DNA from: Nitrospirota bacterium | GTDB taxonomy: Bacteria; Nitrospirota; UBA9217 | DNA: 64,000 nucleotides | Direction of reading: 5' to 3' | Assembly: GCA_035516965.1 (NCBI GenBank) | Contig: DATIZR010000120.1 | Span: 967 to 64,966, forward strand | Shown: positions 19,134-58,000 of the stretch, in pieces | Position numbering within the stretch: the first letter of the stretch is position 1 | Layout of the letters: the number at the start of each line of letters is the position of its first letter | Made by a program: the position numbers and the translations under genes | Notes under the pieces: generated by a model | What the model was told of the DNA's origin: nothing | What the model saw: the letters and a program-made list of their open reading frames with translations, nothing else | The model's database searches: none

Positions 19134-22417
<3,284 letters not shown>

Positions 22418-33925: not shown

Positions 33926-33964
33926 AGTAACCTTCCGTTCTCCGTTCCGGCGATTTGCCCGGGG

Positions 33965-39053: not shown

Positions 39054-39138
39054 GGGAGGCGCAGAATTCGTGAAGAATCATGGCCAGAAAATACTGTGTG
39101 CCGTTGAGCCTTCCCGCGGCAACGCCGCTCTGTTCGTC

Positions 39139-40632
39139 TTACATTTTCTTGGGCAGATAGTCCTTATAGATATTCCGCATCGCGATGACGTACTTCGTGC
39201 CGTTCTTGATGCTCCGCACGATCTCACGGAAGGGAACCTTCGTCTTGTTCAGCCGGAGCGGATTGTGGCGCCAGCCGATGCTGTAGAGCCGGGCGAAGTG
39301 CGCGTAGAACTTTTTCATGTCCATCTTTGTCGGCAGCACGGTGTGCATGCAGTCGTAGTAGAGGTACGAATCGATGATGTAGTCGTTCTGGTGTTTGTGC
39401 CACAGTTCGGTTCCCGGCGAAGGGGAAAAGACCGTGAACGAAACCTCGGACGGGATGAGTTCGATAATGACCCTTTCGAGCCTCCGGAAATCCTCGACCG
39501 TGAACCCGGGATCCACCATCAGCGAGCCGTGCAGCAGGATGCCCGCCTCCCGCAGAATCTGCACTGCTTTCCTGTTCGTCTCCACCGAGGTTCGTTTTTT
39601 GTAATCCTTGAGGCGTTCCTCGTCCATGGCCTCCAGCCCTACGTAGACGATGTGGAGGCCGACCTCTTTCCAGAGCTTGAATAGTTCGGGATGATGGACG
39701 ATAGTGTCGGCGCGGGCCCAGCTCACGAACTTTTTCTTTATGCCGCGTGCTTTCAGCAGGTTCGCGATATCCGTGAGCCGCTTTGGGTTCAGGAAGGTCT
39801 CGTCGTCAACGAAGTAGATGTAATCTTCCTGGATGCCCGCGATCTCGTCCACCACGTCCTCGGGGCTTCGCTGAAGGTATTTGCCGCTCATCATGTGATG
39901 GACCACGCAGAACGCGCAACTGTAGGCGCACCCCGTCGAGGTCCTGATCGTGGCAATGGAGGGGTACATGGTCTCCAGCCGGTTGTTACCGTCCGGCGAG
40001 GTCCAGACCGAGAAATACCGCTTGCGGTCGACGAGCTCGCGACGGGGCCTTGGGATCGCTTCGACAGCCGGAAAGAGAGGCGGCTTCGCGCCCGCCTTCC
40101 GGGTGAACTCGATGTCCTGTACCGCGAGGACCGCATCTCCGTCCGCAAGGGTTTCACCTTTCTTATAGCGGTGGATAATGCCTTCGAATGCCGTGCCGCC
40201 TTCCCCGCGAACGACCAGGTCCATGTCCGAACCGGCGTAGTCCGCAGGAATGATCGTGGCGTGGATGCCGCCGGCCACGGTCAGGACGCCGGGCACCAGC
40301 ATTTTCGCCCGTTTGGCAAGGTCTTTTACGATGGCCGACTGGTTGCTGTAAGCCGTGAACCCGATGATGTCCGGCTGGAGCTCCCGCACGCGTTGTTCGA
40401 AAAAGGCCACCGGGTCTTTTTCCAGTGCGATGTCCTCGATCAGCACCCGGTCCTCCTTCGGGACCCCTCCCGCCACGATTTCGAGCTCCAGGGGCTCGAG
40501 GTGAAGGAAGTCCTGGAGCCTCCTTGCCACGAGAAGGTGCGAGTGCGGTTTGATGAGAAGGATGGTGAGGGGCTTGTTCTTTCCAAAGGCCTTCCCAGGC
40601 CTGGCGTCTACCGATGTCGTCGTCTGTGTCAT
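39139..40632 (-). CDS. B12-binding-domain radical SAM protein (class B)
   Basis: 497 aa. Contains 'ILLIKPH...DIIGFTAYSNQ...LTVAGGIHATI' followed by 'CAYSCAFC'. Confidence 0.8.
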   Translation of the reverse strand: MTQTTTSVDARPGKAFGKNKPLTILLIKPHSHLLVARRLQDFLHLEPLELEIVAGGVPKEDRVLIEDIALEKDPVAFFEQRVRELQPDIIGFTAYSNQSAIVKDLAKRAKMLVPGVLTVAGGIHATIIPADYAGSDMDLVVRGEGGTAFEGIIHRYKKGETLADGDAVLAVQDIEFTRKAGAKPPLFPAVEAIPRPRRELVDRKRYFSVWTSPDGNNRLETMYPSIATIRTSTGCAYSCAFCVVHHMMSGKYLQRSPEDVVDEIAGIQEDYIYFVDDETFLNPKRLTDIANLLKARGIKKKFVSWARADTIVHHPELFKLWKEVGLHIVYVGLEAMDEERLKDYKKRTSVETNRKAVQILREAGILLHGSLMVDPGFTVEDFRRLERVIIELIPSEVSFTVFSPSPGTELWHKHQNDYIIDSYLYYDCMHTVLPTKMDMKKFYAHFARLYSIGWRHNPLRLNKTKVPFREIVRSIKNGTKYVIAMRNIYKDYLPKKM

Positions 40633-40737
40633 GCTGTAACTCCCTTTCGTGATTGAACAAAGATAACAAAGATTTCAAAAAAAGGCCTGTTAACCGTTCA
40701 CGCCAAACCGGTCGGGCAGTTCCTCATTCACAGGGGA

Positions 40738-41964
40738 TCATTTCCCGAAAGCCGGGTACTGACCGGACCTGACCAACTCGGCTGCGGCCCGGCCCGCCGC
40801 TTCCCCCAGGGCGATGCACGCGCCCATCACCCGAACGGAGCCGAGTGCCTGATGCGATACGGAAATGCAGCGTCCGGCAGTGAGGAGATTATGAAACCCT
40901 TTGACCTTCAGGCAGCGGAACGGTATTTCGTAGTAATCGTTCTGGGGCACGTACCGATACACGGGCCCCTTGGTCCGGTCCCAGAGCTCAATGGGCCACG
41001 AATTCTTTACAACGCCATCGGAGAACTTCTTTGCCGAAAGCACGTCCTCTTCGCTCAGGACGTACTCGCCGCGGATCCTTCTGCCCTCCCGGTCCAGAAC
41101 TCCGGAGGCTTCCCGGATCACGGCTTCGCGAAAAGAAGGGAGCCTTGCCGCGAGGATGGCCATTGCCCGGCTGACTTCCCCCCGCACCCGCGTTTCGCGA
41201 TCAGGGTGTTCCTGCTCCTCGGTGCTGAACTTGAGATAACCTTCCTCCGGAGCATCACCGGGGTGGAACGCCGTGAAACGCATGCTGGAAGAGAGCTGCC
41301 CGTGCTCCACAGCCTGTGCCAGCACGAAGGGTACCTTGATTGAAAGCGCCTGGTCCTGGCCCTGGAGGCCGCTGACCCGGACCGTGTAGCCGGCCATCTG
41401 GATCTCGTTGGGAGGCGCACAGTCGAACTCGGCCCCTGCCAGAAACCCGATCTCGCCGCTTCCTGTGCAGTCGATCACGGCCGATGTTCGGAGCGTCACG
41501 TGCATGCCCTTTTGATCGACGAGGATCCCGTCGATTGTGCCGCAGTCTGCGGTGACCGCGATCGCAACACTCTCACGAATCACCTCTATTCCCTGCTCGT
41601 TCCGGCAGAGTTCTCCCAGGACCTGTTCAAGGTCCGCTGACTCGTAGGGCAGGACAAAGACCTTCCCTGCCTTCTGGACGGTCCGCCGGGGAGACTTTTT
41701 CAAGAGCGCGGCAGCAATCTCCCGCGTTACTCCGGGGTTCAGTGTTTCCCCGGGTTCAGAACTCCCGCCGGCATAGAGCCCGCAGATCGTCCGAAGCATG
41801 CCGTGCGTACCGGTCCCGCCCAGCCGGCCCGATCTTTCAACCAGGATGACGCGGCACCCTTTCCGGGCTGCGCTGATTGCCGCTGCAACGCCGGCGACTC
41901 CCCCTCCTGCGACCAGAACTTCACCAACGATCGTTCCTTCCCTCCTGTCGATCAGAGACTGCAT
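40738..41964 (-). CDS. FAD-dependent oxidoreductase
   Basis: 408 aa. N-terminal dinucleotide fold 'VLVAGGGVAGVAAAISAARKGCRVILVER' and 'GGTGTHG'. Overlaps the upstream gene by 13 nt. Confidence 0.75.
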   Translation of the reverse strand: MQSLIDRREGTIVGEVLVAGGGVAGVAAAISAARKGCRVILVERSGRLGGTGTHGMLRTICGLYAGGSSEPGETLNPGVTREIAAALLKKSPRRTVQKAGKVFVLPYESADLEQVLGELCRNEQGIEVIRESVAIAVTADCGTIDGILVDQKGMHVTLRTSAVIDCTGSGEIGFLAGAEFDCAPPNEIQMAGYTVRVSGLQGQDQALSIKVPFVLAQAVEHGQLSSSMRFTAFHPGDAPEEGYLKFSTEEQEHPDRETRVRGEVSRAMAILAARLPSFREAVIREASGVLDREGRRIRGEYVLSEEDVLSAKKFSDGVVKNSWPIELWDRTKGPVYRYVPQNDYYEIPFRCLKVKGFHNLLTAGRCISVSHQALGSVRVMGACIALGEAAGRAAAELVRSGQYPAFGK

Positions 41965-43277
41965 CGGAGGTCACGCTCCAGGGTCTCCAGTTCTTCGTCA
42001 CCAAACAAGCCGTCGAGACAGGAGATCGTCGCGTTCAGCCGCCTGCTGTACGAATTAAAGAAGACGCCTATCCCCGGCGGCACGGGTGTTCTCGGCATGT
42101 GGAACAGGTTTACGATCTTCGCGCCAAGCAGGTCCGCGGACACAAAGGCGTCCTTGCTCACGTGCGAGAAGCAGAACGAAGCTATCTTTCCCTCCATGGG
42201 AAGATGAAAGATACGTTCCAGCAGCGGGAGGGGGGCGATTCGAGTCAGGGCGCCGGCAGCAGCGAGCTTTTCCGGGAAGCGGTTCTGCGTCTGCTCGTAA
42301 AGCTGGCTGCGGATCACGGTGATCAGCCGTTTTCGATCGCCCACGTCCTCCGGCTTTATCTGAAAGAAGAACATCGAGTTCTGGTTGAAGAACAGCTCTT
42401 CCCTGATGTCCTTTGCGCGGCGCATGTCTGTCGAAACGGGCACCACATAGGCCCCGGGAGCCGCCCCCCTGCCCTCGAACAGGCGGTGAAGACCCTGGAT
42501 CACGCGGCTGAACAGGTAGGGCATGATCATCAGGTACCCGGCCTCATCATAGGCGTTGTTCGTGATCCGCTTCGTCTCTTCCTCGTTGAAGGCGATGATC
42601 CGGAACCGGAAACCCCGGCTGCTGCTGCTCAGGCTGACCGGCACGGCACGCACCGGCTCCCCGGAGAGCGACCGGACCTTGCGGTTCACGACCTGTCCGG
42701 CGAGGAACTTGTTCTTCCAACCGGACAGGTCATAGTCCTGGATCAGCCGGATGTTGCCGACGACATCGTCCGAGTTTGCGGCGAGATAGCGCTGGAGCAG
42801 CCCCACGAAAGCCTCGGCTCCCCTCGCATCAAAGAGTCGGTGATCGAAGGTCATGGCGAAGCACTGCTCGCTCATTCCGTAGACCAGGTGGAACGCCAGG
42901 TGTTCGTCGCTTCCGGTGAATGGCGTATTGATGGATCGCGTCAGGACCGACAGGAGGTCCCGGTCGCGGGACGCTCCGTCCAGCCGGGTGACCGTGAGCG
43001 GCAGGGGATGTTCCCTGGGCCCGTTCGGTATCTTCCAGTAGGGAGTGAGCGTCCAGTGCCGGGACACGCGGCCGTTGATGACCGGGAAAAAACGGAGGAA
43101 GCGCCGCAGCGATTCGCGGACGAAGGCCTCGTCGGGCGGAGCATCGAGCATGAAGACGATCTGCGAGGAGTTCCCTGCGCAGGTGGCGTTCTTCATGATG
43201 AGGTCGATGGTCCCCATCACCCAGTCGAAGCCGCTGAGGTAGTATTTGTTCTTGACTGATAGGTACTCGGAGATCAT
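41952..43277 (-). CDS. condensation/acyltransferase-like protein (HxxxD motif)
   Basis: 441 aa. 'MTFDHRLFDARGAEAF' resembles the HHxxxDG catalytic motif of the condensation / WS-DGAT / PapA5-type acyltransferase superfamily. The assignment rests on this motif and on context only. Confidence 0.45.
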   Translation of the reverse strand: MISEYLSVKNKYYLSGFDWVMGTIDLIMKNATCAGNSSQIVFMLDAPPDEAFVRESLRRFLRFFPVINGRVSRHWTLTPYWKIPNGPREHPLPLTVTRLDGASRDRDLLSVLTRSINTPFTGSDEHLAFHLVYGMSEQCFAMTFDHRLFDARGAEAFVGLLQRYLAANSDDVVGNIRLIQDYDLSGWKNKFLAGQVVNRKVRSLSGEPVRAVPVSLSSSSRGFRFRIIAFNEEETKRITNNAYDEAGYLMIMPYLFSRVIQGLHRLFEGRGAAPGAYVVPVSTDMRRAKDIREELFFNQNSMFFFQIKPEDVGDRKRLITVIRSQLYEQTQNRFPEKLAAAGALTRIAPLPLLERIFHLPMEGKIASFCFSHVSKDAFVSADLLGAKIVNLFHMPRTPVPPGIGVFFNSYSRRLNATISCLDGLFGDEELETLERDLRCSL

Positions 43278-43278
43278 G

Positions 43279-43548
43279 CTACAGGTTCTTGTGGATGAAG
43301 GACGCCAGGGACCGGATTGTCTCGAAGTCTTGTCGTGTAAGGTCCGAGTGGATCAGTTGGAGTTTAAAGGTCTTCTCGATGAATACCAGGATCTCGACGA
43401 GGCCGAGTGAGTCGATCCCGAGTTCGTGGAACGGCTGGTCGCCTCCGAGAGATGCCTTGTCAGCCGCCAGTATGGCGGCTACGCCTTCCGTCAGCGTGCT
43501 TTCGATTTCCTGCACCGTGAACTTCTTGCCCGTTTCCTGAACCGCCAT
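43279..43548 (-). CDS. acyl carrier protein
   Basis: ORF trimmed to the ATG at 43548 ('MAVQETGKKF'). Phosphopantetheine site 'LGIDSLGLVEI'. Confidence 0.8.
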   Translation of the reverse strand: MAVQETGKKFTVQEIESTLTEGVAAILAADKASLGGDQPFHELGIDSLGLVEILVFIEKTFKLQLIHSDLTRQDFETIRSLASFIHKNL

Positions 43549-43658
43549 ATCCCGAAAAAATCCTTTCAGCTGGAGTGGTCTGCCTTGGCGCTTGAAGATC
43601 GATGGATGGATCGAGGGACCGGCCCGCTCGCGCAGCAGCATGGTACGTGATGATTAGA

Positions 43659-44717
43659 CTACGGTTTCATCAAATGAATCGTGCTTGATTCGTTTGCGCA
43701 ATTATACCGGATGCATCGCATGAAATCAACAGAAGAATCAGCGTGTTCCTTCACAACAGGAAGGTTTTGCGCTCCGTCCAGAACGGGGTTTGCATAACAG
43801 AAACCGGCCTTGAGCATCAGGGCACCTGCAGCCATGGAGAATGCCGTCCCCGTCATCATGCTTCCGTAGAGCGGCGAGTAAGCGGCGATCCGGGCCCCTG
43901 GACTCGTTTCAAAGGCCTGCCACGTTACCTCTGACGTCATCCCGTCAATGTCGAGAATATTGAGACCTGAACCCTGTGGTGTGTTGGCGCTGGTTCCAAA
44001 CTGTACGCCGGACACCCTGCAGTAAAACCTCTCATCCTCCTTGTTGCCGAGAAGGAAAAAAGCGGCCCCTTCACCGGGAACTGCTCCGGGTGACTTCTGG
44101 AAAGGCCTGATCTTCCCGTCGGCGGCCAGGGCAAGTCTGGAGTCCGCGATATACCCCAGAACGTCTCCGAATTGATCGATTGCGCCGACAAGAACGTGGT
44201 CCAGTCGCCCCTCATGAAGCCATGCGTCGGCAAGCTGCAGCGCCGACTGGAACGAAAAGAAGAACTGCGTCACGGTCAGCGTCGGGCCCTGTATCCCGAG
44301 TGCCGTAGAAATATAAGATGCCGCCGCGTTGTGCACCGAATTGGAAAAGGCCGTTGGGGAGACCGCCGCCTCGCCGAAGTCGAGGATGCCGTCCAGAAAT
44401 TCAAAGGTCGTTCCATGGGCCCCCAAAGCCGTGGCCACGATCACGCCCAGCCTCCTGACCTCCTCAGGACGAAGTCCGCTGTCCGTCACCGCGTCCGTTG
44501 CCGCGAGCACCGCCATCTTGCTCAGCTTGTCCGCACGCCTCATTTTTTTGAGAACGCTCTTGTCCTGCACGTGCTCCAGGTCCACGGTATGGACCGGCAC
44601 CTGCCTGTCCTTGATCGTCAAGCGCGCGGGTTCGCGCCATCCTTCGAGCAGGGCCTGTTGGAATGCATGGATCCCCCTGCCCCGCGAACAGAGAAGGCCA
44701 ATGCCCTGTACGTTCAT
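43659..44717 (-). CDS. beta-ketoacyl synthase-like protein lacking the active-site Cys (chain-length-factor-like partner)
   Basis: 352 aa with a thiolase-fold-like N-terminus 'MNVQGIGLLCSRGRG'. It has 'TVTQFFFSFQSAL' where KS enzymes carry 'xACSSG'. ATGA overlap with the upstream complete KS (44714..44717). Confidence 0.7.
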   Translation of the reverse strand: MNVQGIGLLCSRGRGIHAFQQALLEGWREPARLTIKDRQVPVHTVDLEHVQDKSVLKKMRRADKLSKMAVLAATDAVTDSGLRPEEVRRLGVIVATALGAHGTTFEFLDGILDFGEAAVSPTAFSNSVHNAAASYISTALGIQGPTLTVTQFFFSFQSALQLADAWLHEGRLDHVLVGAIDQFGDVLGYIADSRLALAADGKIRPFQKSPGAVPGEGAAFFLLGNKEDERFYCRVSGVQFGTSANTPQGSGLNILDIDGMTSEVTWQAFETSPGARIAAYSPLYGSMMTGTAFSMAAGALMLKAGFCYANPVLDGAQNLPVVKEHADSSVDFMRCIRYNCANESSTIHLMKP

Positions 44718-45895
44718 GGCGCTGACCTCCGTCCCATCACGATGGCAGCGTTGTTGCCCCCGAAGGCGAGCGACGTGGAAACGGCGTATTTGCCCGCGAT
44801 GCGTGTTATTTCACGGACCGGCGCAAGGGGAATGTTCGGGTCCTGGTTCACGAACCCAGGGCTTGCCGGGATCCATCCCGCTCTCAGCCCCAGGGCGGTG
44901 AACACAGCCTCCAACCCGCCTGCTGCGCCGAGCGTGTGCCCTGTGAACCCCTTTGTCGAGAGCATGGCGAGCCCGGGACCGAACATCCTGGCAAGGAGCT
45001 TCCCCTCGGCCTGATCGTTATCCGGGGTCGCCGTCCCATGGGCGTTCACGAAGCTGACTGTCTCCGGCCCGACGTCCGCCTGTCGCAAGGCAGCGACCAG
45101 CGACGCCTCAAGGCCGACTCCCTCGGGATGGGGCGCCGTGAGATGGTAGGCGTCGGCGCATGCCCCAAACCCCGCAAGAAACAGGTCTGTCGAGACGCGG
45201 CGCCGTTTGGCGAACTCCCGCCGCTCGAGAACGACCACGCCCGCCCCTTCACCAAGATTCAGCCCCTTCCGGTCCCGGTCAAAGGGCGCGCACAGCTCCT
45301 TGCTCACGATGCCGAGCGATCCGAAACCGCAGTACGGGATGCGCGACAGCTCGTCCGCGCCGCCGGCTATGGCAATGTCGCACATGCCGCTCCGGAGCCA
45401 TGACGAAGCCGCGCCGATCGCATCGGTGCCCGATGAACAGGCATTCACGACCGTGAGGCAGGGCCCGTTTGCCTTGACGGAGCGTGCGACGTACTCGGCC
45501 AGGTTCCCCTTCAAGTAACGGTCCACGGGCTCCATGGGCGCCGAGCCCGTCTCGCGATAGGAGCGATAGAATTCCAGATCGTTCAACTGGCTGGCCACGG
45601 TTGTGCCGAGACAGACGCCGACTCGATGCTTCGAAAGATCATGGCCGAGGCCGGACTCGCGCAATGCCTCATCCACGGCAACAAGGGCCAGGCTTATCGT
45701 CCTCAGTCCCTTCCGGCGAAATGCCTCGGGAATGCTTTTCACTTCGAACACCGGATACTCAAGCCGCGTTTCGAAGAGCGTTACAGGCCCGCCGTTTCGC
45801 CGGCCGTCCTTGAAGCACGTCAGCGTCTCAGGCACCGAAGAGCCGGCCGCGGAGATCGCGCCTAGTCCGGTGATAAGGATATCGTTGTTCTGCAT
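44714..45895 (-). CDS. beta-ketoacyl-ACP synthase (FabF-like)
   Basis: Start set at the ATG at 45895 ('MQNNDILITGLG'); the ORF could extend to 45955. Cys-His-His triad contexts 'NACSSGTDAIG', 'NAHGTATPDND' and 'FTGHTLGAAG'. Confidence 0.85.
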   Translation of the reverse strand: MQNNDILITGLGAISAAGSSVPETLTCFKDGRRNGGPVTLFETRLEYPVFEVKSIPEAFRRKGLRTISLALVAVDEALRESGLGHDLSKHRVGVCLGTTVASQLNDLEFYRSYRETGSAPMEPVDRYLKGNLAEYVARSVKANGPCLTVVNACSSGTDAIGAASSWLRSGMCDIAIAGGADELSRIPYCGFGSLGIVSKELCAPFDRDRKGLNLGEGAGVVVLERREFAKRRRVSTDLFLAGFGACADAYHLTAPHPEGVGLEASLVAALRQADVGPETVSFVNAHGTATPDNDQAEGKLLARMFGPGLAMLSTKGFTGHTLGAAGGLEAVFTALGLRAGWIPASPGFVNQDPNIPLAPVREITRIAGKYAVSTSLAFGGNNAAIVMGRRSAP

Positions 45896-45954
45896 AGGCC
45901 GGTTATTGTACACTCCCCTTTGTTCTTTGTCCATGGGTTTGGCCATCAAGGCCA

Positions 45955-47718
45955 TCAGAAGCGCGGACAGGTCCTGCAGGCCTCGGGAGGGTCATCACCT
46001 GTCATCCGCTGACGATGGTCTCTGAACACATCTCCATTCCATATCGCGGAGAGGGGCTGGGCAAGGAGATTTCCCGCCTTGATGCCGGGTTGGCAATCGC
46101 ACAGCGTTGCCTCGCCCTGGACATTGATGGGGATGGTCTGCCACGGCGAAGCGCACCAGGAGCGGCGTGATGACCGCATGTACAGCTGATCAGGAGGAAG
46201 CAGCAGGAACTTATTGTACCTCTTCCAGAGACCGAACTCCTCCAGCCCCCTCACGGAAAGAACGGGCAGGTTCTTCCGGAAAGCGCTGGATACGGCTGTC
46301 CGCAACATCGAGGCTGCATGTACGCTGCCGTTCTTCCAGAGCGTCCGCCCGATGTTTTCCCCGAAATTCAGGTCCGTCAGCATCATCACGTGAACGCCCA
46401 GGCCGGAGACGAGTTCCATGAGCAGGTCGAGCGAATCGATGGTTTCCGTCGAGACCGCGGAAAAGACGGCAATCGATATTTCCCTCGTGGAACGCGAGAT
46501 ATCGACGAACCGCCTTATGTTAGCAACCACTCGGGCAAGGTCCGTTCCGGGCCGTACCGCTGCGGCAAGGTCCTGAGTACCCGCGTCGATGCTGAATGCG
46601 ATCGATTCGAGACCCGCGTCAAGAAGACTGCGAGAGAGCCCTTCGTCCAGGAGCATCGCGTTCGTCACCAGCGCTGTTCTTCTTCCCCGGGATGATGCCT
46701 CCCGGACAAGATCCGCCACCTGCGGATGCATCAGCGTTTCGCCGAGGCCAACCAGTGTTACCCGATACGCATGCGGAAGCAGGTCGAGTATGGCGGAGAA
46801 GACTCCTTTCGGCATGTCCCTGGGATCGACGCCCCTCAGGGTGCGGGCGCAATGGACGCAGCGCATGGTGCACCGTGTGGTGATCTCGATGTTAGCGATA
46901 ACCGGCTCAGTCGGAACGATCGGACTGAGCCGGGACTGCTGACCGGCCGCGCTTTGTCCGCTGGGGCTCAGGGCAAGATGATGCGCGGAAAACGGCGACA
47001 CGTCAAGAAAACGGCCCGCTTCGGGTTCGACGGACAGGATGCGTTCTAGTACGGCCCTATCCTCGCGCGACGGCACCCGCACGACATCATCGATGGCCCT
47101 CGCAACAAGATCAACAGCAAGCGTGCAGTTCGGACCCTGCAAGACATCGTGTCCCGCGCCGGGGACGGTCGCCGCACGAACGGGTCCCCGGAAGTAGTCA
47201 CGCGACCAGTCTGCTGTATCGGCGCCAGGGACGAGCGCATCCCGCTCTCCCTGCAGGACAAATACCGGGAATGAACCCTTGAACCGGGATTTCCCGACTT
47301 TCTTGATCATTGAGACCATGGCCGCAACCGAGGTGAACGAAATCTGGCTCTTGCCTTTGCGGTGGTCCGACCATCGAGCGAAAGAGTTTGTGTCGATTTT
47401 TTTTGGAACGGAAGCAAGCACGAGCAGCAAGGGTTCTGCGCCCGTCTCCGCCAGCGCGTTCAGGGCAATGATGCCGCCGGTCGAGTGTCCGAAGAGCACG
47501 ATGTCCAGGCCCCGCTGCTGGGCGTCTCTGACTGCTTCGACCACGGACCCGGTAAAGGACCTCATATCGAAGGCGGGCACCCCGCGCGATGCATGACCCG
47601 GAAGCCGCACGGTTCGCACGGAATCCAGTCCTTTGCGCCCGCGAAGCGCATCGGCAAGGAGGGTAAGGTCGTCCGGGGACCCCGAGTAACCGTGGACAAG
47701 AATAACAGTGGCGGGCAC
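45955..47718 (-). CDS. fusion protein: alpha/beta hydrolase (N) + radical SAM/SPASM-like domain (C)
   Basis: 587 aa. N-terminal 'ILVHGYSGSPDD' with nucleophile elbow 'GHSTGG'. Residues ~283-290 'CTMRCVHC' (46849..46872). C-terminal Cys-rich 'CASPW...LCDCQP...EACRTCPRF'. Confidence 0.75.
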   Translation of the reverse strand: MPATVILVHGYSGSPDDLTLLADALRGRKGLDSVRTVRLPGHASRGVPAFDMRSFTGSVVEAVRDAQQRGLDIVLFGHSTGGIIALNALAETGAEPLLLVLASVPKKIDTNSFARWSDHRKGKSQISFTSVAAMVSMIKKVGKSRFKGSFPVFVLQGERDALVPGADTADWSRDYFRGPVRAATVPGAGHDVLQGPNCTLAVDLVARAIDDVVRVPSREDRAVLERILSVEPEAGRFLDVSPFSAHHLALSPSGQSAAGQQSRLSPIVPTEPVIANIEITTRCTMRCVHCARTLRGVDPRDMPKGVFSAILDLLPHAYRVTLVGLGETLMHPQVADLVREASSRGRRTALVTNAMLLDEGLSRSLLDAGLESIAFSIDAGTQDLAAAVRPGTDLARVVANIRRFVDISRSTREISIAVFSAVSTETIDSLDLLMELVSGLGVHVMMLTDLNFGENIGRTLWKNGSVHAASMLRTAVSSAFRKNLPVLSVRGLEEFGLWKRYNKFLLLPPDQLYMRSSRRSWCASPWQTIPINVQGEATLCDCQPGIKAGNLLAQPLSAIWNGDVFRDHRQRMTGDDPPEACRTCPRF

Positions 47719-47720
47719 GA

Positions 47721-48944
47721 CTAAGACTCCGTAAGAGCGGTCGCAAGGGCGGTCACGCCGCCGTAGCGCGCCAAGGTGGTCTGGGCCTGCAGAAGCTGTC
47801 CTGAAAGACCGGACTTCACCAGCAGGCTGCTGATCCTCACGTGGACCTCATCGTCAGACATCCGTTCGAGGGCCTCCATGTAGATCTGCGGATTTCCCTG
47901 AAAAGGCTGGGGTGGTATCAGCCGTAGACCGCACCCCATCCTCTCGAGACAGACGCCGCTGTGGGCCTGCTCGGGCTGAAACGGCATGACGATCACGGGG
48001 ATCCGGTTCTGGAGCGATTCAAACACCGTAAGCTGTCCGCCGTGGGTGACCACGAGCGAGGCATGGGGCAGGATTGCTGCGAGCGGTGCAAAGGTCATGG
48101 AGACGACCCGGGGATCAGCAGGCACGCAGCCGAGGAATTCCTTCTGGCCGCCGCCTGCGAGCAGGACCGTATACCCTCTGTCGAGCAGCAGTTGGACGAT
48201 CCGCAGCACGGGAGTGAAGGAGACTGTGCAGGTGCCGAAGGCGACGACTGCAAGCGGTTGTCCGCCCGCCAGCAGCAAGTCGATATCAACAGGGTCGGCA
48301 GGCCATCGGTTCCAGGAAATCGGACCGACGTGAAGGAGGTCCTTCCGCTGACGCAGCGGAGCGAACTCGGGAAAGTCCCAGAGAAAGGTGCGCTCCCCCA
48401 GCAGGCTGTTCCGGATGTCTCCGTTGCTCTTCGGCAGTCCGAAAGCAGTGATCGACGCTCCGAGCTTTGATCCGGCGTACCGGAAGAAGCCGTCGAGGAT
48501 GATGCGCTGCATGTCGCGCCCGGGTTCGTCTTCCGCGAACCCGAGGACGTCCTCGGAAACCGGAGTCATGCAGCCGCAGATCAGGGAGTCAACGGGCACG
48601 CCCGCAATGGCCGCAGAGGCCTTGAGCGTGAACCGGAATACACCGAGCACGCGGTCCGGCCGGTATTCCCTCAGGAGAGAGACTTCGGCATGGATGCAGG
48701 CAGCAATCCTGCGGGGGTCCCGGAACCATTCCACGGAAGGGAAGCCCGAATCGTCATTTTCCTGGATATCAGGCAGAACGAAATGCTCGATCGAAAGACG
48801 CGTCAGGAACGCTGAATGTTTCCTGCTCACCGCTATCCGCGCTTCATGGCCTCTCTCGATGAGCGCCTCGCTCAGGGCGAGGCATTTCGCCACGTGGGAA
48901 AGCGCGTTGTTGCCCGGAACGAGGAGATATTTTTTTCGGTTCAT
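47721..48944 (-). CDS. glycosyltransferase family 1 (MGT/UDP-glycosyltransferase-like)
   Basis: 407 aa. C-terminal nucleotide-sugar motif 'VTHGGQLTVFESLQNRIPVIVMPFQPEQ'. Confidence 0.75.
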   Translation of the reverse strand: MNRKKYLLVPGNNALSHVAKCLALSEALIERGHEARIAVSRKHSAFLTRLSIEHFVLPDIQENDDSGFPSVEWFRDPRRIAACIHAEVSLLREYRPDRVLGVFRFTLKASAAIAGVPVDSLICGCMTPVSEDVLGFAEDEPGRDMQRIILDGFFRYAGSKLGASITAFGLPKSNGDIRNSLLGERTFLWDFPEFAPLRQRKDLLHVGPISWNRWPADPVDIDLLLAGGQPLAVVAFGTCTVSFTPVLRIVQLLLDRGYTVLLAGGGQKEFLGCVPADPRVVSMTFAPLAAILPHASLVVTHGGQLTVFESLQNRIPVIVMPFQPEQAHSGVCLERMGCGLRLIPPQPFQGNPQIYMEALERMSDDEVHVRISSLLVKSGLSGQLLQAQTTLARYGGVTALATALTES

Positions 48945-49029
48945 GTAGGCTTCCGGATCTTGTTCAGGGCTTCTTTCTGTTCCCGTAAACGTAGCTGGGC
49001 TGGCTATCGTGTCTGACGGTCCCGGGCGA

Positions 49030-50421
49030 TCACGATGTACCTGGACTCGTGAGCCGGGAAGAGGTTCCGCCCTCGGAATGTGGCGCCCGTATCAGATGAT
49101 CCGATTCCTCGGTCAATACCGAGTCGATGATGTAGTCGCAAACGTCTTCCACGAAAAACGCGCCGTATTTCGATAAACGAACGAACCCATTCTCCTGCAG
49201 GAGACACCCAAAACCTCCGAGCTCCGAAAAGAGCCGGGAGAAGACATCCCGGGGGTCTGCGGCAAACCTGCCGTGAAACCGGCGGATATCGACGCCTTCA
49301 GCCAGCTGCAGGCTCAGCAAGAGCGTCCGGAACATCTGTTCCCGTCTGGTCAGGTCGATATATCTGCCGATCGGAAGCCCGCCTTTTCTGATGATGTTCG
49401 TATACGAGGAAAGCTCTTCATACTTATCATAGCAGATCGTTTTGGTATACGACCGCGCCCGCGAACCGAATGCGATGATCGGTATCTCTTTCAACCAGTA
49501 ATAGCGATAGGGCCATTGCGCGTCATTCGTAAAACTGCCATTCTGCTCGTATCCGTTCGCGCTCATCCATTCCTGCGTCCTGAACACGATGTCAAAAAGA
49601 GTGTCATTGCTCACGACCAGGCCGGGGTGTTCTTTGTAGAGCTTGACGATCAAGGGGTTCACGATCTCGTGCCTGATATACTCGACCGAATCAGGACGGA
49701 TTCCCTCAAGGATGGCCAGGTCAGCTTCCACACTGTCCATGGTCTGTCCGGGAAGTCCGGTCATCATGTCGATGTTGATCGATATCCCGGCATCCTGCAC
49801 GGCCCTCACGACGTCTGCGACCTGTCCCCGGGTGTTCTTTCTGTTGCAGCGAGCGAGGATCTCCTGGTCAAAGGTCTGGCAACCGATACTGAGCCTGTTG
49901 ATGCCGATATTCCGCAGTTCCCGTACCCGCTTTGCATCCGAGAGCGTGGCGGGATGCGCTTCCGACGTTACGTTGCACGCATGACTGAATCCGATGATAG
50001 AGGAAAGCTTTTCCAGTATACGGTTGATGTCGCGGCTGGGAAATGACGTGGGGGTTCCGCCGCCGAAATAGATGCATCGCGCCTTCTTGCCAGAGAATAC
50101 TCCGCGGCCCGCCACCAATTCTATCTCTTTCAGCAAATTCTCCAGATAATCATCCTGGGCTTCCCTGCTCACGGGATGAGGGAAGGAATTGCAGAACAGA
50201 CATTCGGAGAAACAGAACGGAAGGTGGACATAGAGCAAGAGCTCTTCTGCTACCAGGCTCTCTCTTACCCGCTCCAGAAAGCAGTCGGTCTGCGACGGGG
50301 CCAGTATCTTGAAGTGGTGAGGAATGAACAGGTCCGGCTGGCTCTTGGTGTAATCTACGGAGCCGTAGAAGAGTTTCTCTCGTATGATAGTCAGCGCTTC
50401 ATTGTGTATCATACTTCCCAT
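49030..50421 (-). CDS. HemN-like (oxygen-independent coproporphyrinogen oxidase family) radical SAM protein
   Basis: Start set at the ATG at 50421 (or 50412). Contains 'YVHLPFCFSECLFCNSF', 'IYFGGGTPT', 'RLSIGCQTFD' and a HemN_C-like tail. Confidence 0.8.
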   Translation of the reverse strand: MGSMIHNEALTIIREKLFYGSVDYTKSQPDLFIPHHFKILAPSQTDCFLERVRESLVAEELLLYVHLPFCFSECLFCNSFPHPVSREAQDDYLENLLKEIELVAGRGVFSGKKARCIYFGGGTPTSFPSRDINRILEKLSSIIGFSHACNVTSEAHPATLSDAKRVRELRNIGINRLSIGCQTFDQEILARCNRKNTRGQVADVVRAVQDAGISINIDMMTGLPGQTMDSVEADLAILEGIRPDSVEYIRHEIVNPLIVKLYKEHPGLVVSNDTLFDIVFRTQEWMSANGYEQNGSFTNDAQWPYRYYWLKEIPIIAFGSRARSYTKTICYDKYEELSSYTNIIRKGGLPIGRYIDLTRREQMFRTLLLSLQLAEGVDIRRFHGRFAADPRDVFSRLFSELGGFGCLLQENGFVRLSKYGAFFVEDVCDYIIDSVLTEESDHLIRAPHSEGGTSSRLTSPGTS

Positions 50422-50606
50422 TTCTCGAACGCCTACATGGACTTCCCTTGAAGACGCTGATCGTGGTCGACCTTCTTGACCGGAGCATTCGCACAGGACA
50501 GCGAGCCCCGGCCCCGGGAGCGGCGCCACGAATCAGCTGAACGGGGACCCCTGTGTACATACCCCGGCGCGCTTTCCGGATCGTCGCACCCTTCTCCCGG
50601 AGCTCT

Positions 50607-50885
50607 TTACTTCTTGTTATCGTAGATGAAGTTGGCGATGGTATTGATGGAGTGGAATATCTCCTTGCCCTGATCCATGTTCTTGACTTCGACGCCGAAG
50701 TTCCGCTGCAGCAGCACGACGATCTCCACGGCGTCCAGAGAGTCGAGCCCGAGCCCTTCCCCGAAGAGAACCTCATCGTCCTTGATGTCCGCCGGTTTGA
50801 CATCCTCGAGCGAAAGATCGCGGACGATCATTTCCTTGAGGTCCTTGCGGATTTGCACCAGTTCCTGTTCCTTTGCTTCTGCCAT
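50607..50885 (-). CDS. acyl carrier protein
   Basis: 92 aa. Contains 'LGLDSLDAVEIVVLLQRNFGV'. Confidence 0.88.
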   Translation of the reverse strand: MAEAKEQELVQIRKDLKEMIVRDLSLEDVKPADIKDDEVLFGEGLGLDSLDAVEIVVLLQRNFGVEVKNMDQGKEIFHSINTIANFIYDNKK

Positions 50886-50969
50886 ACTTTCTCTCCTTCT
50901 TCACCGGTTGAATGATCTCGTTTGACAACGCATGCAGCGGCTGCACATGCGGCCAGGCCAGCAGCACCG

Positions 50970-51869
50970 TCACTCATTGGAACGCCACATGTCGCGGAAC
51001 ACGAACCACTGGTATGGATAACGATCCGCGTAGTCTTCCAGGACGCGGGCATATTCCTGGACACAGGCCCTGATCTGTTCCTGCTTCTCCCTCGCTCTCC
51101 CGCGCGGCGGTTCGATCACGTGGGTGACGTCGGTCAGGTACTTCCTGCGCCCGACCTTCGCCGAGAGCAGTACGACTACGGGGCACTGGGCCGCGCCCGC
51201 GATCGTGAACGCTCCGTAGGGAAAGGAAACGGGTCCGCCCAGAAGCATGGCTTCCTGGGAACTGTACCCGTACGTCCGGTCCCCCATGATCGAAACAAGT
51301 TCGCCGCGGCTGATCGCCTTCATGGCTTCGACCACACCGCCCAGCGTGTCATCGGTGTGCAGGATGCGTATCGCACTCTGGTCCCGGTCGATGCCCAGCG
51401 ACTCCCGGACCGCGGCGTTGTCCTCTGGCCGCATCAGCAGGTGGACGGTCTTTCCCAGCCTCCGCAGAACGGTCATGGCCACCTGCCAGTTTCCAACGTG
51501 GGCCGTCAGCAGGACCAGTCCCTTCTCGCCTGAAAGGAGGCCCTTCAGCCGTTCCAGGCCCTGGATGTCGATCTCGATGCTTGTTCCGCCGGCAATCACG
51601 TAATACCGGTCGAGGAGGCTTTTGCCCTGGCTGACGAACAGCAGGTAAACATCGAGCAGCCGCCGGAGCCGGCCGTGGCCCGGGAACCGGCGGTTCACAT
51701 AAGCCAGGCTCGCCCTGACTGCAGGGCGGTCGAATGCCAGGTAGTAGAGCCCCACCAGGTACAGCAGGCCGTAGGCCCCGGCGAGTCCGGAGACGCGGAC
51801 CGCCGTTCTGAAGAACCAGAACCCGATCCTGTTCCCCCGCTTCCGGTCAGTTGCCCTTGCCTGCGACAT
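50970..51869 (-). CDS. lysophospholipid/lipid A-type acyltransferase (LPLAT, LpxL/HtrB-like)
   Basis: Start set at the ATG at 51869 ('MSQARATD'). N-terminal TM segment. 'LLTAHVGNWQVA' corresponds to the HxxxxD/E box of the family, with Q at the acidic position. Confidence 0.7.
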   Translation of the reverse strand: MSQARATDRKRGNRIGFWFFRTAVRVSGLAGAYGLLYLVGLYYLAFDRPAVRASLAYVNRRFPGHGRLRRLLDVYLLFVSQGKSLLDRYYVIAGGTSIEIDIQGLERLKGLLSGEKGLVLLTAHVGNWQVAMTVLRRLGKTVHLLMRPEDNAAVRESLGIDRDQSAIRILHTDDTLGGVVEAMKAISRGELVSIMGDRTYGYSSQEAMLLGGPVSFPYGAFTIAGAAQCPVVVLLSAKVGRRKYLTDVTHVIEPPRGRAREKQEQIRACVQEYARVLEDYADRYPYQWFVFRDMWRSNE

Positions 51870-53046
51870 AGACGTACCTTGCCTTCCGGATCGCAAGCGC
51901 GGCAAAGAAGACGATCGCGCCGGTCAGGAGGGCGAGGAGCGGCGCGATGACCAGCGAACCGAGAAGCCATTCATAGAGCCGTGCGGAGAACTGCTCGAAC
52001 ACTGTCTGGAACGAGAGATCGGTGAGCCATTGCCCGTGGCGCATATAGTATCCGACCTCGATGCAGAGCGCCGGCACCACGGGCGGCATCGCGATATGCT
52101 GGACGTTCAGGGACACGATCTTGTTCAGGTTCAGCCGCAGGGACACGTAGAGGATGACGAGCGAATGCACGAACAGAAGCGGCAGGACCGCCAGAAAGAC
52201 GCCAACTGCCGCGGACAGGGCAAGCCCCTCCGGAGTGGCGTTCTCCCTGATCAGCATCTTCAGCGCCTTCCCCGGGTGTCGCAGGAGGGAGAGGTTGAGT
52301 GCCGTTGCGGGCTTCACCAGTTTGTGATGCGGCACCGGCAGCAGTCGCCTGCCTACCAACATGGAATGGATGCCCGTGAGGCGAAGATTGTCCAGGAACG
52401 GCCGGAAGCTCGATACGCGCTCCCCGGGCTTCGGATAGCATACGGAGACGGGAACCGTTTTCAGCGTCAGTCCCGCCCAAGACGCCTTGGCAAGGACCTC
52501 GGCCTCGAAGTCGTAGCGGCTGCCCTTGAAGGTGAGCTGGTTCAGATAGCGGACCGGATAGGCGCGGAAGCCGCTCTGGCAATCATCAACCGTCACCCCG
52601 GTCTCCACCTTGAGCCAGAAGTTCGCGAAGGCCCTGCCGAACCTGCTCGAAGCCGGCACGTTCCCGGTATTGAAGTCCCGGGATCCGATGATGACGCTCC
52701 TGTCGTCCTCTTCGATTACCGGGAAAAACCGCCGGACATCGCTCGGGTCGTGCTGCCCATCAGCGTCGATGGTGATCATGAAGACGCCGCCGCGCTCCTC
52801 GATAGAGCGCGAGGCCGTGAGGATCGCCTGTCCTTTGCCGAGGTTCTTTTCGTGCTTCAGCATCACAACAGCAAGGCCGCCCAGCAGTGATGAGACGTCG
52901 GCATCCGTGCTGCCGTCGTCAACCACGATCACGTTTGAGAGCATGGCGAGGCATTGTTCCACGACGGTCCTGATGGTGGCCGCATTGTTATAGACCGGGA
53001 CCGCGATCCAGACGCGGCCGTCCGTGGCGTGCTTACTTAGGTGCAT
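51847..53046 (-). CDS. glycosyltransferase family 2 fused to a C-terminal polytopic (DUF2062-like) membrane domain
   Basis: ORF trimmed to the ATG at 53046 ('MHLSKHATDGRVWIAVPVYNN'). Contains 'VVDDGSTD' and 'TIDADGQHDP'. The C-terminal ~130 aa is hydrophobic. Confidence 0.75.
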   Translation of the reverse strand: MHLSKHATDGRVWIAVPVYNNAATIRTVVEQCLAMLSNVIVVDDGSTDADVSSLLGGLAVVMLKHEKNLGKGQAILTASRSIEERGGVFMITIDADGQHDPSDVRRFFPVIEEDDRSVIIGSRDFNTGNVPASSRFGRAFANFWLKVETGVTVDDCQSGFRAYPVRYLNQLTFKGSRYDFEAEVLAKASWAGLTLKTVPVSVCYPKPGERVSSFRPFLDNLRLTGIHSMLVGRRLLPVPHHKLVKPATALNLSLLRHPGKALKMLIRENATPEGLALSAAVGVFLAVLPLLFVHSLVILYVSLRLNLNKIVSLNVQHIAMPPVVPALCIEVGYYMRHGQWLTDLSFQTVFEQFSARLYEWLLGSLVIAPLLALLTGAIVFFAALAIRKARYVYVAGKGN

Positions 53047-55668: not shown

Positions 55669-56336
55669 GCGAAACCTTTCCTGCTGCTCACGAAAGAGAA
55701 TTTCTGAATGATCCCCGTTACTTCCGGGGCTGACTGAACGATTGCCTGTGCAACGGGGAAACTGCAGAGATCGTCTGTTCGGCCGGTTCCCTCCGTTCCC
55801 ATGACCAGAAAGAGCGCTTCTTCTTCCCCGGCCGTTCCGGCAATCATGAAGGAAGCCTCCCGGTTCTCGATCATTTCAGCGGCCAGGTCGAGGAGCGGTG
55901 CCAGGGAATGGCCGCGGTCCGCGACATAGAACAGGGGGCCGAGGAGTCCGAACTGGATGGCCGCCTCGCCGAGCGGGCTCGAGGGCAGCGTGTAGATAAA
56001 AAGGTTCCCCCGGGACAGCGTCCTGCCGCCTTTTATGTAGTCCCTGAAATAGTCCAGGTCCGTGCGGAGCGATCCTTCCCGACTCGTGCCGATGAGGCCG
56101 ATGTCCCGTTTCTGCGGATCCTCGAACCCCGCGTCCCGGAGCGCGAGCGCCACGCCGGAGCATGCCATCCGCGAGAGGCGGTCGAAGCGTCCGAAGTTCT
56201 TGACGGGCCGGGGGAAAAGCTGGTCTCTCAACGAATCAGGGCCGGGTCCGCCGTCATAGATCGACCGCTCTTTCCGAACGATGCATCCGTACGCATCCTT
56301 CGTAAGCCAGCCTATGCCCTGTACGCTTATCGTCAT
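55665..56336 (-). CDS. half-size beta-ketoacyl synthase N-terminal-like protein (no catalytic Cys)
   Basis: 223 aa. 'MTISVQGIGWLTKDAYG' and 'MACSGVALALRDAG' resemble a KS N-terminal domain. No 'ACSS'-type nucleophile and no His-His region. Confidence 0.55.
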   Translation of the reverse strand: MTISVQGIGWLTKDAYGCIVRKERSIYDGGPGPDSLRDQLFPRPVKNFGRFDRLSRMACSGVALALRDAGFEDPQKRDIGLIGTSREGSLRTDLDYFRDYIKGGRTLSRGNLFIYTLPSSPLGEAAIQFGLLGPLFYVADRGHSLAPLLDLAAEMIENREASFMIAGTAGEEEALFLVMGTEGTGRTDDLCSFPVAQAIVQSAPEVTGIIQKFSFVSSRKGFA

Positions 56337-56387
56337 GCTCGAATAATCTTCTTTGACATTAGTCAGCCTGGCGCATGAGAAGCCGTC

Positions 56388-57991: not shown

Positions 57992-58000
57992 CGTCTCGTC

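Follow-up and report, generated by a model that had tools for sequence, protein, structure and literature searches.

A 64,000-nucleotide stretch from a Nitrospirota bacterium (contig DATIZR010000120.1 of assembly GCA_035516965.1), referred to here as the window, encodes on its reverse strand a 587-aa protein in which an alpha/beta-hydrolase domain is fused to a radical S-adenosylmethionine (SAM) enzyme. The fusion is one protein with both domains, and together with the glycosyltransferase family 1 (GT1) gene that directly precedes it, it forms a fixed, reciprocal and translationally coupled two-gene module. Within this module, the fusion would be a bifunctional tailoring enzyme for an aryl polyene (APE)-type lipid or polyene product exported to the outer membrane, a reading that we favor and to which we give about an even chance of being correct. 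The conserved hydrolase–twitch radical SAM architecture, its second clade, its split form and the obligate partnership with GT1 are new; both domain superfamilies and the type of gene cluster were already known. An earlier note on this DNA knew of no characterized enzyme with such an architecture, and searches of NCBIfam, the PDB and the literature likewise turned up none, the literature searches for a published characterization of the fusion returning genome-mining surveys and background only.

The Fusion Is a Single Conserved Protein

The fusion gene has a GTG start codon preceded by a GGAG Shine-Dalgarno sequence, and the N-terminus of its product agrees with those of its homologues in a family alignment of 32 sequences, which are 46–62% identical to the window protein and to which all statements on invariant residues refer (for coordinates see Table 1). 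The earlier note had described a single open reading frame (ORF) carrying both domains, and the ORF list, the Pfam matches and the homologues agree with this; the short motifs that it had picked out (GHSTGG, GERD, GAGHD, CTMRCVHC, LCDCQP and CRTCPRF) are all present and correctly placed, and their key residues are invariant. The source databases name the protein only "alpha/beta fold hydrolase" or give it a composite COG-style name.

A homologue search covering 5.8 billion proteins returned 299 relatives. The best 120 of these are almost all 583–604 aa long and match the query at 97–100% coverage and 46–63% identity, and nearly all have both the hydrolase and the radical SAM domain on record; the clear exception, a protein of 453 aa with 77% coverage and only the radical SAM/SPASM part, looks truncated. 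The relatives originate from assemblies of JGI, ENA, NCBI and Logan, which rules out an assembly artefact common to them all. The earlier note had asked whether a frameshift at the linker might have joined two genes, which the full-length homologues, with both domains in one frame, answer without recourse to reads. That two genes were joined in sequencing or assembly, through a frameshift or an overlooked stop codon, has a negligible probability, as the same single-frame architecture occurs in more than 120 independent sequence clusters from different assemblers and sources as well as in isolate genomes (Holophaga foetida and Propionivibrio soli), and the connector between the domains is conserved and confidently folded (see below). 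Broken copies do occur in a few loci from metagenome-assembled genomes (MAGs; L065, L071, and L203), but here the change goes in the opposite direction, from intact to broken.

An exhaustive search with the radical SAM half alone gave a clean score step between the orthologues and lower-scoring relatives. All representatives with at least 224 bits are either proteins of ~575–625 aa, in which the match starts near residue 260, or obvious fragments. Below the step lies a second clade of fusions of 526–529 aa (P0175, P0177), which are 32–35% identical in the radical SAM half and match Abhydrolase_6, Radical_SAM, and SPASM. The step is also followed by stand-alone radical SAM proteins of ~350 aa, the best of which (P0168, 36% identity) has as its immediate upstream gene a separate alpha/beta-hydrolase that is 28% identical over 160 aa to the N-terminal half of the fusion and keeps the motifs GYSLGG, GGRD, and LDH. 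Since both a second-clade fusion and a split pair exist, the hydrolase and radical SAM activities are linked whether fused or not. The question raised earlier of whether orthologues are always fused is thus answered with yes for the orthologues, all of which are, and with not always for the more distant relatives, as the split pair illustrates.

When single genomes of 185,579 species, the organism of the window itself not among them, were scanned with a profile, 67 fusion loci were found in as many species genomes from at least 10 phyla. The organism of the window is probably an uncultured Nitrospirota bacterium, its CarB being 69–72% identical to that of Nitrospirota/Thermodesulfovibrionales MAGs. 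Carriers belong to the Nitrospirota (Thermodesulfovibrionia), many Desulfobacterota including Geobacteraceae, Elusimicrobia, Bacillota MAGs, Spirochaetota, Leptospirales, Brevinematia, Acidobacteriota (Holophagaceae), Planctomycetota, Methylomirabilia, Beta- and Gammaproteobacteria (Propionivibrio, Accumulibacter, and Lysobacterales), and Anaeromyxobacter; no anammox or Desulfotalea genome is among the 67. The family is hence rare, phylogenetically very broad and carried mostly by anaerobes. Intact loci are present in two cultured carriers, Holophaga foetida DSM 6591 (L067, with GT1 at 8670–9992 and the fusion at 9989–11602) and Propionivibrio soli SG131 (L064, with GT1 at 8742–9968 and the fusion at 9965–11788), and the H. 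foetida protein is 41% identical to that of the window with the catalytic triad and the HG motif kept.

Architecture and Predicted Activities of the Two Halves

The N-terminal half matches the Pfam families Abhydrolase_6 (aa 5–193, 39.6 bits) and Hydrolase_4 (aa 5–193), both above their gathering thresholds. Its nucleophile elbow G77-H-S79-T-G81 lies in GHSTGG, with Ser79 encoded by nt 47482–47484, followed by Asp160 in GERD (nt 47239–47241) and His190 in GAGHD (nt 47149–47151); these three residues and the oxyanion motif H9-G10 are invariant. They stand in the canonical order of serine hydrolases, within what both an AlphaFold2 model and Foldseek identify as an alpha/beta-hydrolase fold. Foldseek against the PDB placed this half next to the thioesterases SulM-TE, RifR, BorB, and TesA together with bMGL, Est30, and EstD (E-values of 1e-9 to 1e-8; TM scores of 0.55–0.73 normalized to the target; 17–24% identity), and against NCBIfam the hydrolase half alone gave generic BioH/MenH/esterase matches only. 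By its intact motifs, the domain is predicted to be a catalytically competent Ser-Asp-His enzyme, be it an esterase, a thioesterase or an acyltransferase.

AlphaFold2 was run on the family alignment and gave a model of the whole protein with a predicted local distance difference test (pLDDT) of 89.6 and a predicted template modeling score (pTM) of 0.90; as this pTM applies to a two-domain protein, the relative placement of the domains is confidently predicted. Such tight packing would also suit a hydrolase domain that merely docks an acyl carrier protein (ACP) or the GT1 enzyme as a scaffold, leaving all chemistry to the radical SAM domain, and some alpha/beta-hydrolase folds have indeed evolved non-catalytic roles. 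However, Ser79, Asp160, His190 and the HG motif are invariant in the alignment down to 46% identity, and both the Holophaga protein, at 41% identity, and the hydrolase of the split pair retain the catalytic residues. Selection for catalysis would be expected to leave such a pattern of conservation, and a purely structural role appears highly improbable.

The connector between the two domains had been described in the earlier note as a Ser/Pro/Gln-rich linker, but a flexible linker is not what the model suggests. Residues 218–257 are predicted to form four helices and residues 258–273 an ordered coil, with a pLDDT of ~90, and E231, P232, F237, S244, H247, and P252 are conserved in the alignment. 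The connector is accordingly modeled as a structured element that makes the protein a rigid two-domain unit. It is partly dispensable, being ~25 residues shorter in the Holophaga foetida orthologue and entirely missing from the second clade.

The second half matches Radical_SAM (PF04055; aa 277–409, 3e-17, 63.7 bits against a cut-off of 29.5). Its CTMRCVHC motif (C283-x3-C287-x2-C290, nt 46849–46872) contains the invariant CX3CX2C signature, a GGE-type SAM-binding motif (G324-L-G-E327) is likewise invariant, and the predicted beta/alpha core matches BlsE, DesII, viperin, and MoaA in Foldseek. By motif and fold, the protein is therefore placed in the radical SAM superfamily and is predicted to cleave SAM. 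The best Foldseek match of this half is BlsE (3e-11; TM score 0.67 normalized to BlsE; 21% identity), followed by DesII (3e-10) and then CteB, SuiB, SkfB, viperin, and MoaA. BlsE and DesII were also the top PDB matches of the fusion in a single-sequence search; these matches are weak, and the family profile was needed to find BtrN. Neither Foldseek nor the family-profile search found a PDB chain with both a hydrolase and a radical SAM fold.

The C-terminus had been considered SPASM-like with auxiliary Fe-S clusters, of which the Cys-rich Fe-S domain stands, whereas the assignment to SPASM with several clusters does not. Members of the SPASM subfamily bind two auxiliary [4Fe-4S] clusters through a seven- to eight-Cys motif that includes CX2CX5CX3C. 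This motif is absent from the C-termini in the 32-sequence alignment, in which only five Cys are invariant, namely C522, C540 and C542 (both in LCDCQP), and C581 and C584 (both in CRTCPRF); the first of these, C522, had not been named in the earlier note. With five conserved Cys and no CX2CX5CX3C motif, two auxiliary SPASM clusters cannot be bound. The best match of the family profile in the PDB is BtrN (6.9e-13), which is aligned in two stretches, the second spanning aa 512–584. Here, the four Cys of the BtrN twitch domain (BtrN residues 159–235) have their counterparts in C522, C540, C581, and C584, to which the family adds C542 as a further invariant Cys of its own. A twitch domain, as in BtrN and MoaA, is an abridged SPASM domain with a single auxiliary cluster. 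The NCBIfam model N_Twi_rSAM also matches aa 520–584. The Pfam SPASM model still matches the protein (aa 522–585, 6e-11, 42.9 bits, above the gathering threshold), a match that arises from the alignment of its profile with the twitch-type region. As judged from its Cys pattern, the C-terminus is thus a BtrN-like twitch domain with one predicted auxiliary [4Fe-4S] cluster rather than a full SPASM domain.

An Obligate GT1 Partner

The gene directly upstream of the fusion encodes a GT-B-fold glycosyltransferase of the GT1 family, the TAG stop codon of which lies 2 nt before the GTG of the fusion. It matches the Pfam families EryCIII-like_C and Glyco_tran_28_C, and its PDB relatives are CalG1, YjiC, SnogD, OleD, and a rhamnosyltransferase (9KE2); the NCBIfam macrolide glycosyltransferase (MGT) model is matched with only 46 bits where 260 are required, which places the protein outside this subfamily. 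In an alignment of 29 sequences, the catalytic dyad S16-H17 and the nucleotide-sugar motif with H301-G-G303, E309, and P324-E-Q326 are invariant or almost invariant.

The partnership holds in both directions. With the proteins of the window cluster as tblastn queries, GT1 was found in all 37 loci that have at least 8 kb of sequence on both sides, and it lies directly upstream on the same strand in 57 of the 59 loci with enough upstream sequence. The two exceptions (L065 and L071) were considered as a possible alternative architecture and rejected, as they are frameshifted or degraded copies. A reverse scan with the GT1 profile gave 67 loci, and in every one of the 66 with downstream sequence a fusion homologue follows immediately. 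Two of these 66 downstream fusions are broken, L203 being frameshifted and L178 carrying a deletion. In the latter (5207–6910, a Brevinematia MAG), hydrolase residues 1–158 run directly into the N-terminus of an ABC permease of the FtsX/LolC type and the radical SAM half is gone, the chimeric ORF being either a deletion remnant or an assembly chimera. The junctions between GT1 and fusion are 2-nt or overlapping, in the window as well as in the isolate loci, and the second clade is paired too, with a 406-aa gene that overlaps the start of the fusion and is 30% identical to the window GT1 (4e-42). In an unbiased clustering of all neighbors in 52 loci, no gene other than GT1 is universal or fixed in position. 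GT1 and the hydrolase–radical SAM fusion thus constitute a fixed, reciprocal and translationally coupled module of two genes.

Proposed Function of the Module

Because GT1 is the only invariant partner, and because BtrN, DesII, and BlsE act on carbinol carbons of sugars or cyclitols, the most economical reading is that the radical SAM domain remodels the sugar that GT1 installs. A close relative of the radical SAM half, P0207, which likewise lies below the score step, is a fusion of a glycosyltransferase family 2 (GT2) domain with a radical SAM domain and was counted in favor of sugar-directed chemistry; the other multi-domain relatives of this half, which were inspected for hints at function, are tandem radical SAM fusions and were set aside as uninformative, only P0207 being suggestive.

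In the proposed scheme, GT1 would attach a sugar from a common nucleotide-sugar to a lipid or polyene acceptor. The radical SAM domain would reductively cleave SAM, and the 5'-deoxyadenosyl radical would take a hydrogen atom from a carbinol carbon of the sugar, as in BtrN, DesII, and BlsE. The sugar might thereby be oxidized to a keto-sugar, decarboxylated or rearranged, or undergo elimination, and the auxiliary cluster would serve to conduct the electron. The hydrolase domain would make or break an ester on the same intermediate, either by transferring the acyl or polyenoyl chain of an ACP to a hydroxyl group of the sugar or by cleaving off an acyl group so that the product is exposed or released. 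It is the substrate, the order of the steps and the exact chemistry that we infer here.

Several points weigh against this scheme. The likeness of the radical SAM half to BtrN, BlsE, and DesII is at the superfamily level, with 14–21% identity and scores far below the NCBIfam equivalog cut-offs, none of the three equivalog levels being reached (for the BlsE model TIGR04466, 35.3 bits against 400), and SPASM peptide maturases and the lipid C–C-forming radical SAM enzyme GDGT-MAS score nearly as well. The hydrolase half is as thioesterase-like as it is esterase-like, and a role on an ACP thioester is equally compatible with it. Furthermore, the co-location with GT1 points to a functional link while leaving the order of the two enzymes undecided, and neither a recurring dedicated nucleoside diphosphate-sugar pathway nor an aminotransferase was found among the neighbors in the 52 loci.

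The role suggested in the earlier note, radical chemistry coupled to hydrolytic or acyl-transfer release, belongs to a different reading, in which the hydrolase is a thioesterase or off-loading acyltransferase for an ACP-bound chain, the radical SAM domain acts on the hydrocarbon chain itself (by C–C bond formation, cyclization, desaturation or epimerization), and GT1 acts before or after. This is a live alternative owing to the thioesterase-like hydrolase, and we regard it as possible, if on the improbable side. The Pfam family Thioesterase (PF00975) matches aa 4–107 above its threshold (31.0 bits against 26.4), although this match does not discriminate, as it overlaps the stronger generic matches to Abhydrolase_6 and Hydrolase_4. 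The type of thioesterases among the Foldseek matches (SulM-TE, RifR, BorB, and TesA), a weak NCBIfam match to the ACP-ester esterase BioH, and the presence of GDGT-MAS among the PDB profile matches (5e-10) point the same way, and in the window the fusion is translationally coupled to a pair of ketosynthase (KS) and chain-length factor (CLF) genes and lies near two ACP genes. On the other hand, KS, CLF, and ACP genes lie within 10 kb in only about two-thirds of the loci and at varying positions, while GT1 is essentially always adjacent; this reading leaves the obligate pairing, the strongest signal of the gene context, unexplained. Moreover, the clusters already hold a dedicated 4HBT thioesterase and several B12-binding radical SAM enzymes for chain chemistry, and the top relatives of the radical SAM half are sugar-modifying twitch enzymes.

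NCBIfam has no specific model for the fusion protein. Its best matches are TIGR04311 (rSAM_Geo_metal, 98.7 bits against a cut-off of 400) and TIGR04317 (a tungsten-enzyme maturase, 85.8 bits against 380), and Foldseek lists CteB, SuiB, and SkfB, which would fit a radical SAM half that matures a protein, peptide or cofactor, in the manner of anSME, rSAM_Geo_metal, tungsten-enzyme maturases or sactisynthases, with the hydrolase processing the target. However, both scores are 4–5-fold under the family cut-offs and cover the core barrel only (aa 276–451), the neighbor analysis gave no conserved precursor-peptide gene or target metalloenzyme, the fusion protein has no RRE domain, and its only invariant partner is a GT1 of the small-molecule type; a maturase is accordingly very unlikely.

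A bolder form of the tailoring of a GT1 glycoside is that the module builds an undescribed lipid head group on APE-like outer-membrane lipids of anaerobes, in which, for example, a lipid-linked hexose would be turned into a cyclitol-type carbocycle or a radical C–C bond would link the sugar with the polyene or acyl chain. The fusion of the domains would then channel an unstable acyl-glycoside intermediate between the active sites. We consider this unlikely, yet if true, HpnJ and calditol synthase would be joined by a third, independent radical SAM route by which glycolipid head groups are remodeled, and the fusion would be the first characterized bifunctional hydrolase–radical SAM enzyme.

The Surrounding Operon

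The module lies within an operon of more than 27 kb, which probably continues past the end of the window (Table 1). Besides the genes in the table, it contains genes for an AMP-ligase, a PF12831 FAD oxidoreductase, KS/CLF-like proteins (two pairs in all, counting that of the table), an LpxL-like acyltransferase, a GT2-DUF2062 protein, a 4HBT thioesterase, and MMPL and LolA proteins. The APE-type set (KS/CLF, ACP, 4HBT, LpxL-like, GT2-DUF2062, MMPL, and LolA-like) lies entirely within 50607–62094. For the ketoreductase, the dehydratases and the aryl starter supply of APE clusters, the window offers as candidates only the AMP-ligase and a weak ApeP-like match (5e-5) fused to a radical SAM protein, the operon running off the window end. 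Genes for dehydratases of the ApeP/ApeI type, FabG, DUF3261, and an aromatic ammonia-lyase are present in related loci. By gene content, the operon is an APE gene set to which radical SAM enzymes have been added. The setting in a thiotemplated lipid pathway that the earlier note had assumed is supported by the two ACPs, the two KS/CLF pairs and the 4HBT thioesterase in the same operon.

Table 1. Features of the fusion gene, its GT1 partner and the surrounding operon in the window.
Feature	Position	Strand	Basis and remarks
Alpha/beta-hydrolase–twitch radical SAM fusion gene	45955..47718	(-)	587 aa, GTG start; ORF list, Pfam, homologues, AlphaFold2
Alpha/beta-hydrolase domain, aa 1-213	47080..47718	(-)	Pfam, invariant residues, Foldseek
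Inter-domain connector, aa 214-272	46903..47079	(-)	AlphaFold2 secondary structure and conserved residues
Radical SAM core, aa 273-490	46249..46902	(-)	Pfam, invariant columns, Foldseek (BlsE/DesII/CteB/SuiB)
Predicted twitch-type auxiliary Fe-S domain, aa 512-587	45958..46185	(-)	Family profile vs. PDB (BtrN); Cys pattern
GT1-family GT-B glycosyltransferase, macrolide-GT-like, 407 aa	47721..48944	(-)	Pfam/NCBIfam MGT; PDB CalG1/YjiC/OleD
Aryl-polyene/"ladderane-like" type II polyketide synthase (PKS)–lipid operon	36169..63584	(-)	Pfam/NCBIfam; same families around homologues
Beta-ketoacyl synthase, 413 aa	44714..45955	(-)	Pfam; start overlaps fusion stop (TGATG)
KS-like, N-terminal KS domain only (CLF-like), 352 aa	43659..44717	(-)	Pfam
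ACP, DSL motif (LGIDSLGLVEI)	43279..43641	(-)	Translation
Second ACP, DSL motif	50607..50885	(-)	Translation; same family in 18 related loci
B12-binding radical SAM genes, four	36169-37602, 39139-40632, 53033-54433, 54397-55668	all (-)	Pfam/NCBIfam
HxxxD acyltransferase-like (FDHRLFDARG), 441 aa	41952-43277	(-)	No Pfam/NCBIfam match
HemN/ChuW-like class C radical SAM	49030-50529	(-)	HutW model 176 bits vs. 400; between GT1 and ACP
Radical SAM-SPASM–ApeP-like fusion, 496 aa	62094-63584	(-)	Radical_SAM aa 33-191, full SPASM aa 254-314

Across the 52 loci, KS/CLF genes were found in 35, B12-binding radical SAM genes in 34, LpxL-like genes in 26, GT2-DUF2062 and 4HBT genes in 19 each, ACP genes in 18, and MMPL genes in 13. 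The B12-binding radical SAM enzymes may serve in C-methylation or in other chemistry on the chain. The canonical APE clusters of E. coli and Vibrio are not known to contain a module of GT1 and a hydrolase–radical SAM fusion. In a comparative study of ladderane biosynthesis, loci of Kuenenia and Desulfotalea were described that contain SAM-radical, CoA-ligase, oxidoreductase, and glycosyltransferase genes (PMC2649909). The window operon is the same kind of locus as these "ladderane-like" type II fatty acid synthase (FAS) clusters (PMC2649909).

Three further genes of the operon deserve mention. The HxxxD motif of the acyltransferase-like protein is typical of condensation- and WS/DGAT-type acyltransferases, and homologues occur in ~6 related loci (e.g., L010, 12185–13513). 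The HemN/ChuW-like gene has a homologue in only 1 of the 37 related loci and appears to be a lineage-specific addition; a link to the HemN-like cyclopropanase of the Jaw5 pathway was considered for it and dropped, since by this single co-occurrence the gene does not belong to the module. In the radical SAM-SPASM protein, a second unusual fusion in the operon, the C-terminal ApeP-like hotdog dehydratase domain (aa 358–490) is a weak match below the Pfam threshold, the radical SAM part resembles the AhbD/NirJ type (142 bits against a cut-off of 500), and homologues lie within 10 kb in 5 of 37 loci.

Individual loci of other genomes add to this picture. In L072, the second-clade fusion (8001–9590) comes after a GT1 homologue and before genes for a lipoprotein and a B12-binding radical SAM protein, and it adjoins restriction/defence-like genes for an SMC-like ATPase, an N6/N4 methylase, and a ResIII helicase. 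The 97-aa ORF after the second-clade fusion was considered as an ACP and rejected, since it encodes a lipoprotein. In some relatives, such as that of an Elusimicrobia MAG (L008, 11903–14566), the fusion gene is followed by one for an 887-aa protein that combines a carbohydrate esterase family 4 (CE4) polysaccharide deacetylase with a methyltransferase, GT2, and DUF2062, and stand-alone CE4 deacetylases occur in ~9 loci. These CE4 deacetylases hint at a sugar of the N-acetyl-hexosamine type somewhere in these pathways.

Directly downstream of the lipid operon, positions 29022–35993 (reverse strand) encode two alpha-amylase-family proteins (1043 and 629 aa), a TreT-type trehalose synthase and a DUF5752 protein; genes of this trehalose/alpha-glucan block co-occur with the module in none of the 37 loci. 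The region 16787–28035, also on the reverse strand, holds a run of pyrimidine-biosynthesis genes (pyrD, pyrK-like, carB, carA, pyrC-like, and pyrB), which is interrupted by a small radical SAM gene (22562–23482) and by a gene for a calcineurin-like metallophosphoesterase (24854–25738). At 12840–16790 on the same strand, a XerC/D-type tyrosine recombinase adjoins a sigma-54-dependent two-component system of a HAMP histidine kinase and an NtrC-type response regulator.

Significance

Aryl-polyene and "ladderane-type" clusters are among the biosynthetic gene cluster (BGC) classes most often reported in genome-mining surveys, and to our knowledge their products in anaerobes are essentially undescribed. 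The module recurs across at least 10 phyla, and the cultured carriers Holophaga foetida and Propionivibrio soli make it testable. Its characterization would show how these lipids are decorated and would extend the radical SAM superfamily by a new domain architecture and probably by a new reaction, while the pair of GT1 and fusion would serve as a marker to sub-classify a large and poorly resolved BGC family. We consider the importance moderate, as no long-standing question is touched and the chemistry may be familiar sugar oxidation and ester hydrolysis; since precedents exist for the likely combination of sugar C–H abstraction and ester chemistry, the fusion is somewhat less exotic than first thought.

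Comparison With Known Systems

Among enzymes of known structure, BtrN, the 2-deoxy-scyllo-inosamine dehydrogenase of butirosin biosynthesis (PDB 4M7T/4M7S), the archetype of the twitch radical SAM enzymes, is the best match over both the core and the C-terminal domain. The two share the four twitch Cys, and the bond that BtrN attacks is a carbinol C–H in a sugar-like ring. However, BtrN is a stand-alone protein of 250 aa without a hydrolase domain, the identity is low, and the fusion differs further in the extra invariant C542, a much longer segment between barrel and twitch domain, and a neighborhood without aminoglycoside genes. BlsE (cytosylglucuronate decarboxylase, PDB 7VOB) and DesII (TDP-4-amino-4,6-dideoxyglucose deaminase, PDB 8HZV) are sugar-modifying radical SAM enzymes that work alongside glycosyltransferases in natural-product pathways. 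They are 13–21% identical to the fusion, neither is fused to a hydrolase, and their substrates are nucleoside- or nucleotide-linked sugars, whereas that of the fusion is presumably lipid-linked. With type II thioesterases and the thioesterase domains of nonribosomal peptide and polyketide synthases (RifR, BorB, SulM-TE, and TesA), as well as with bacterial monoacylglycerol lipases and carboxylesterases (bMGL and Est30), the hydrolase half has the compact fold, small cap, and Ser-Asp-His triad in common, but it carries no family-specific signature, and none of these enzymes is fused to a radical SAM domain.

At the level of gene pairs, the rhamnolipid enzymes RhlA and RhlB offer a parallel, in that an acyltransferase with an alpha/beta-hydrolase fold that uses acyl-ACPs is encoded beside a GT1-type lipid glycosyltransferase. 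Their gene order is reversed and no radical SAM enzyme is involved, and RhlA is not among the top structural or sequence matches of the hydrolase half.

A parallel to the whole of the proposed scheme is offered by HpnI, HpnK, and HpnJ of the hopanoid cyclitol-ether head-group pathway, in which the addition of a sugar to a membrane lipid by a glycosyltransferase is combined with deacylation by a hydrolase and with remodeling of the sugar ring by a radical SAM enzyme, while calditol synthase (Cds) is a radical SAM precedent on a lipid head group (PMC13459092). HpnI, HpnK, and HpnJ are separate proteins, HpnK is not an alpha/beta-hydrolase, and HpnJ belongs to the radical SAM class with a B12-binding domain, its model not being among the 25 listed of the 43 NCBIfam matches of the fusion. 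The lipid of the window operon would be derived from PKS/FAS-type enzymes instead of being a hopanoid (Hpn) or a glycerol dialkyl glycerol tetraether (Cds). What these systems would have in common with the module is the logic of glycosyltransferase, hydrolase, and radical SAM enzyme acting in turn, which is an analogy rather than homology at the family level.

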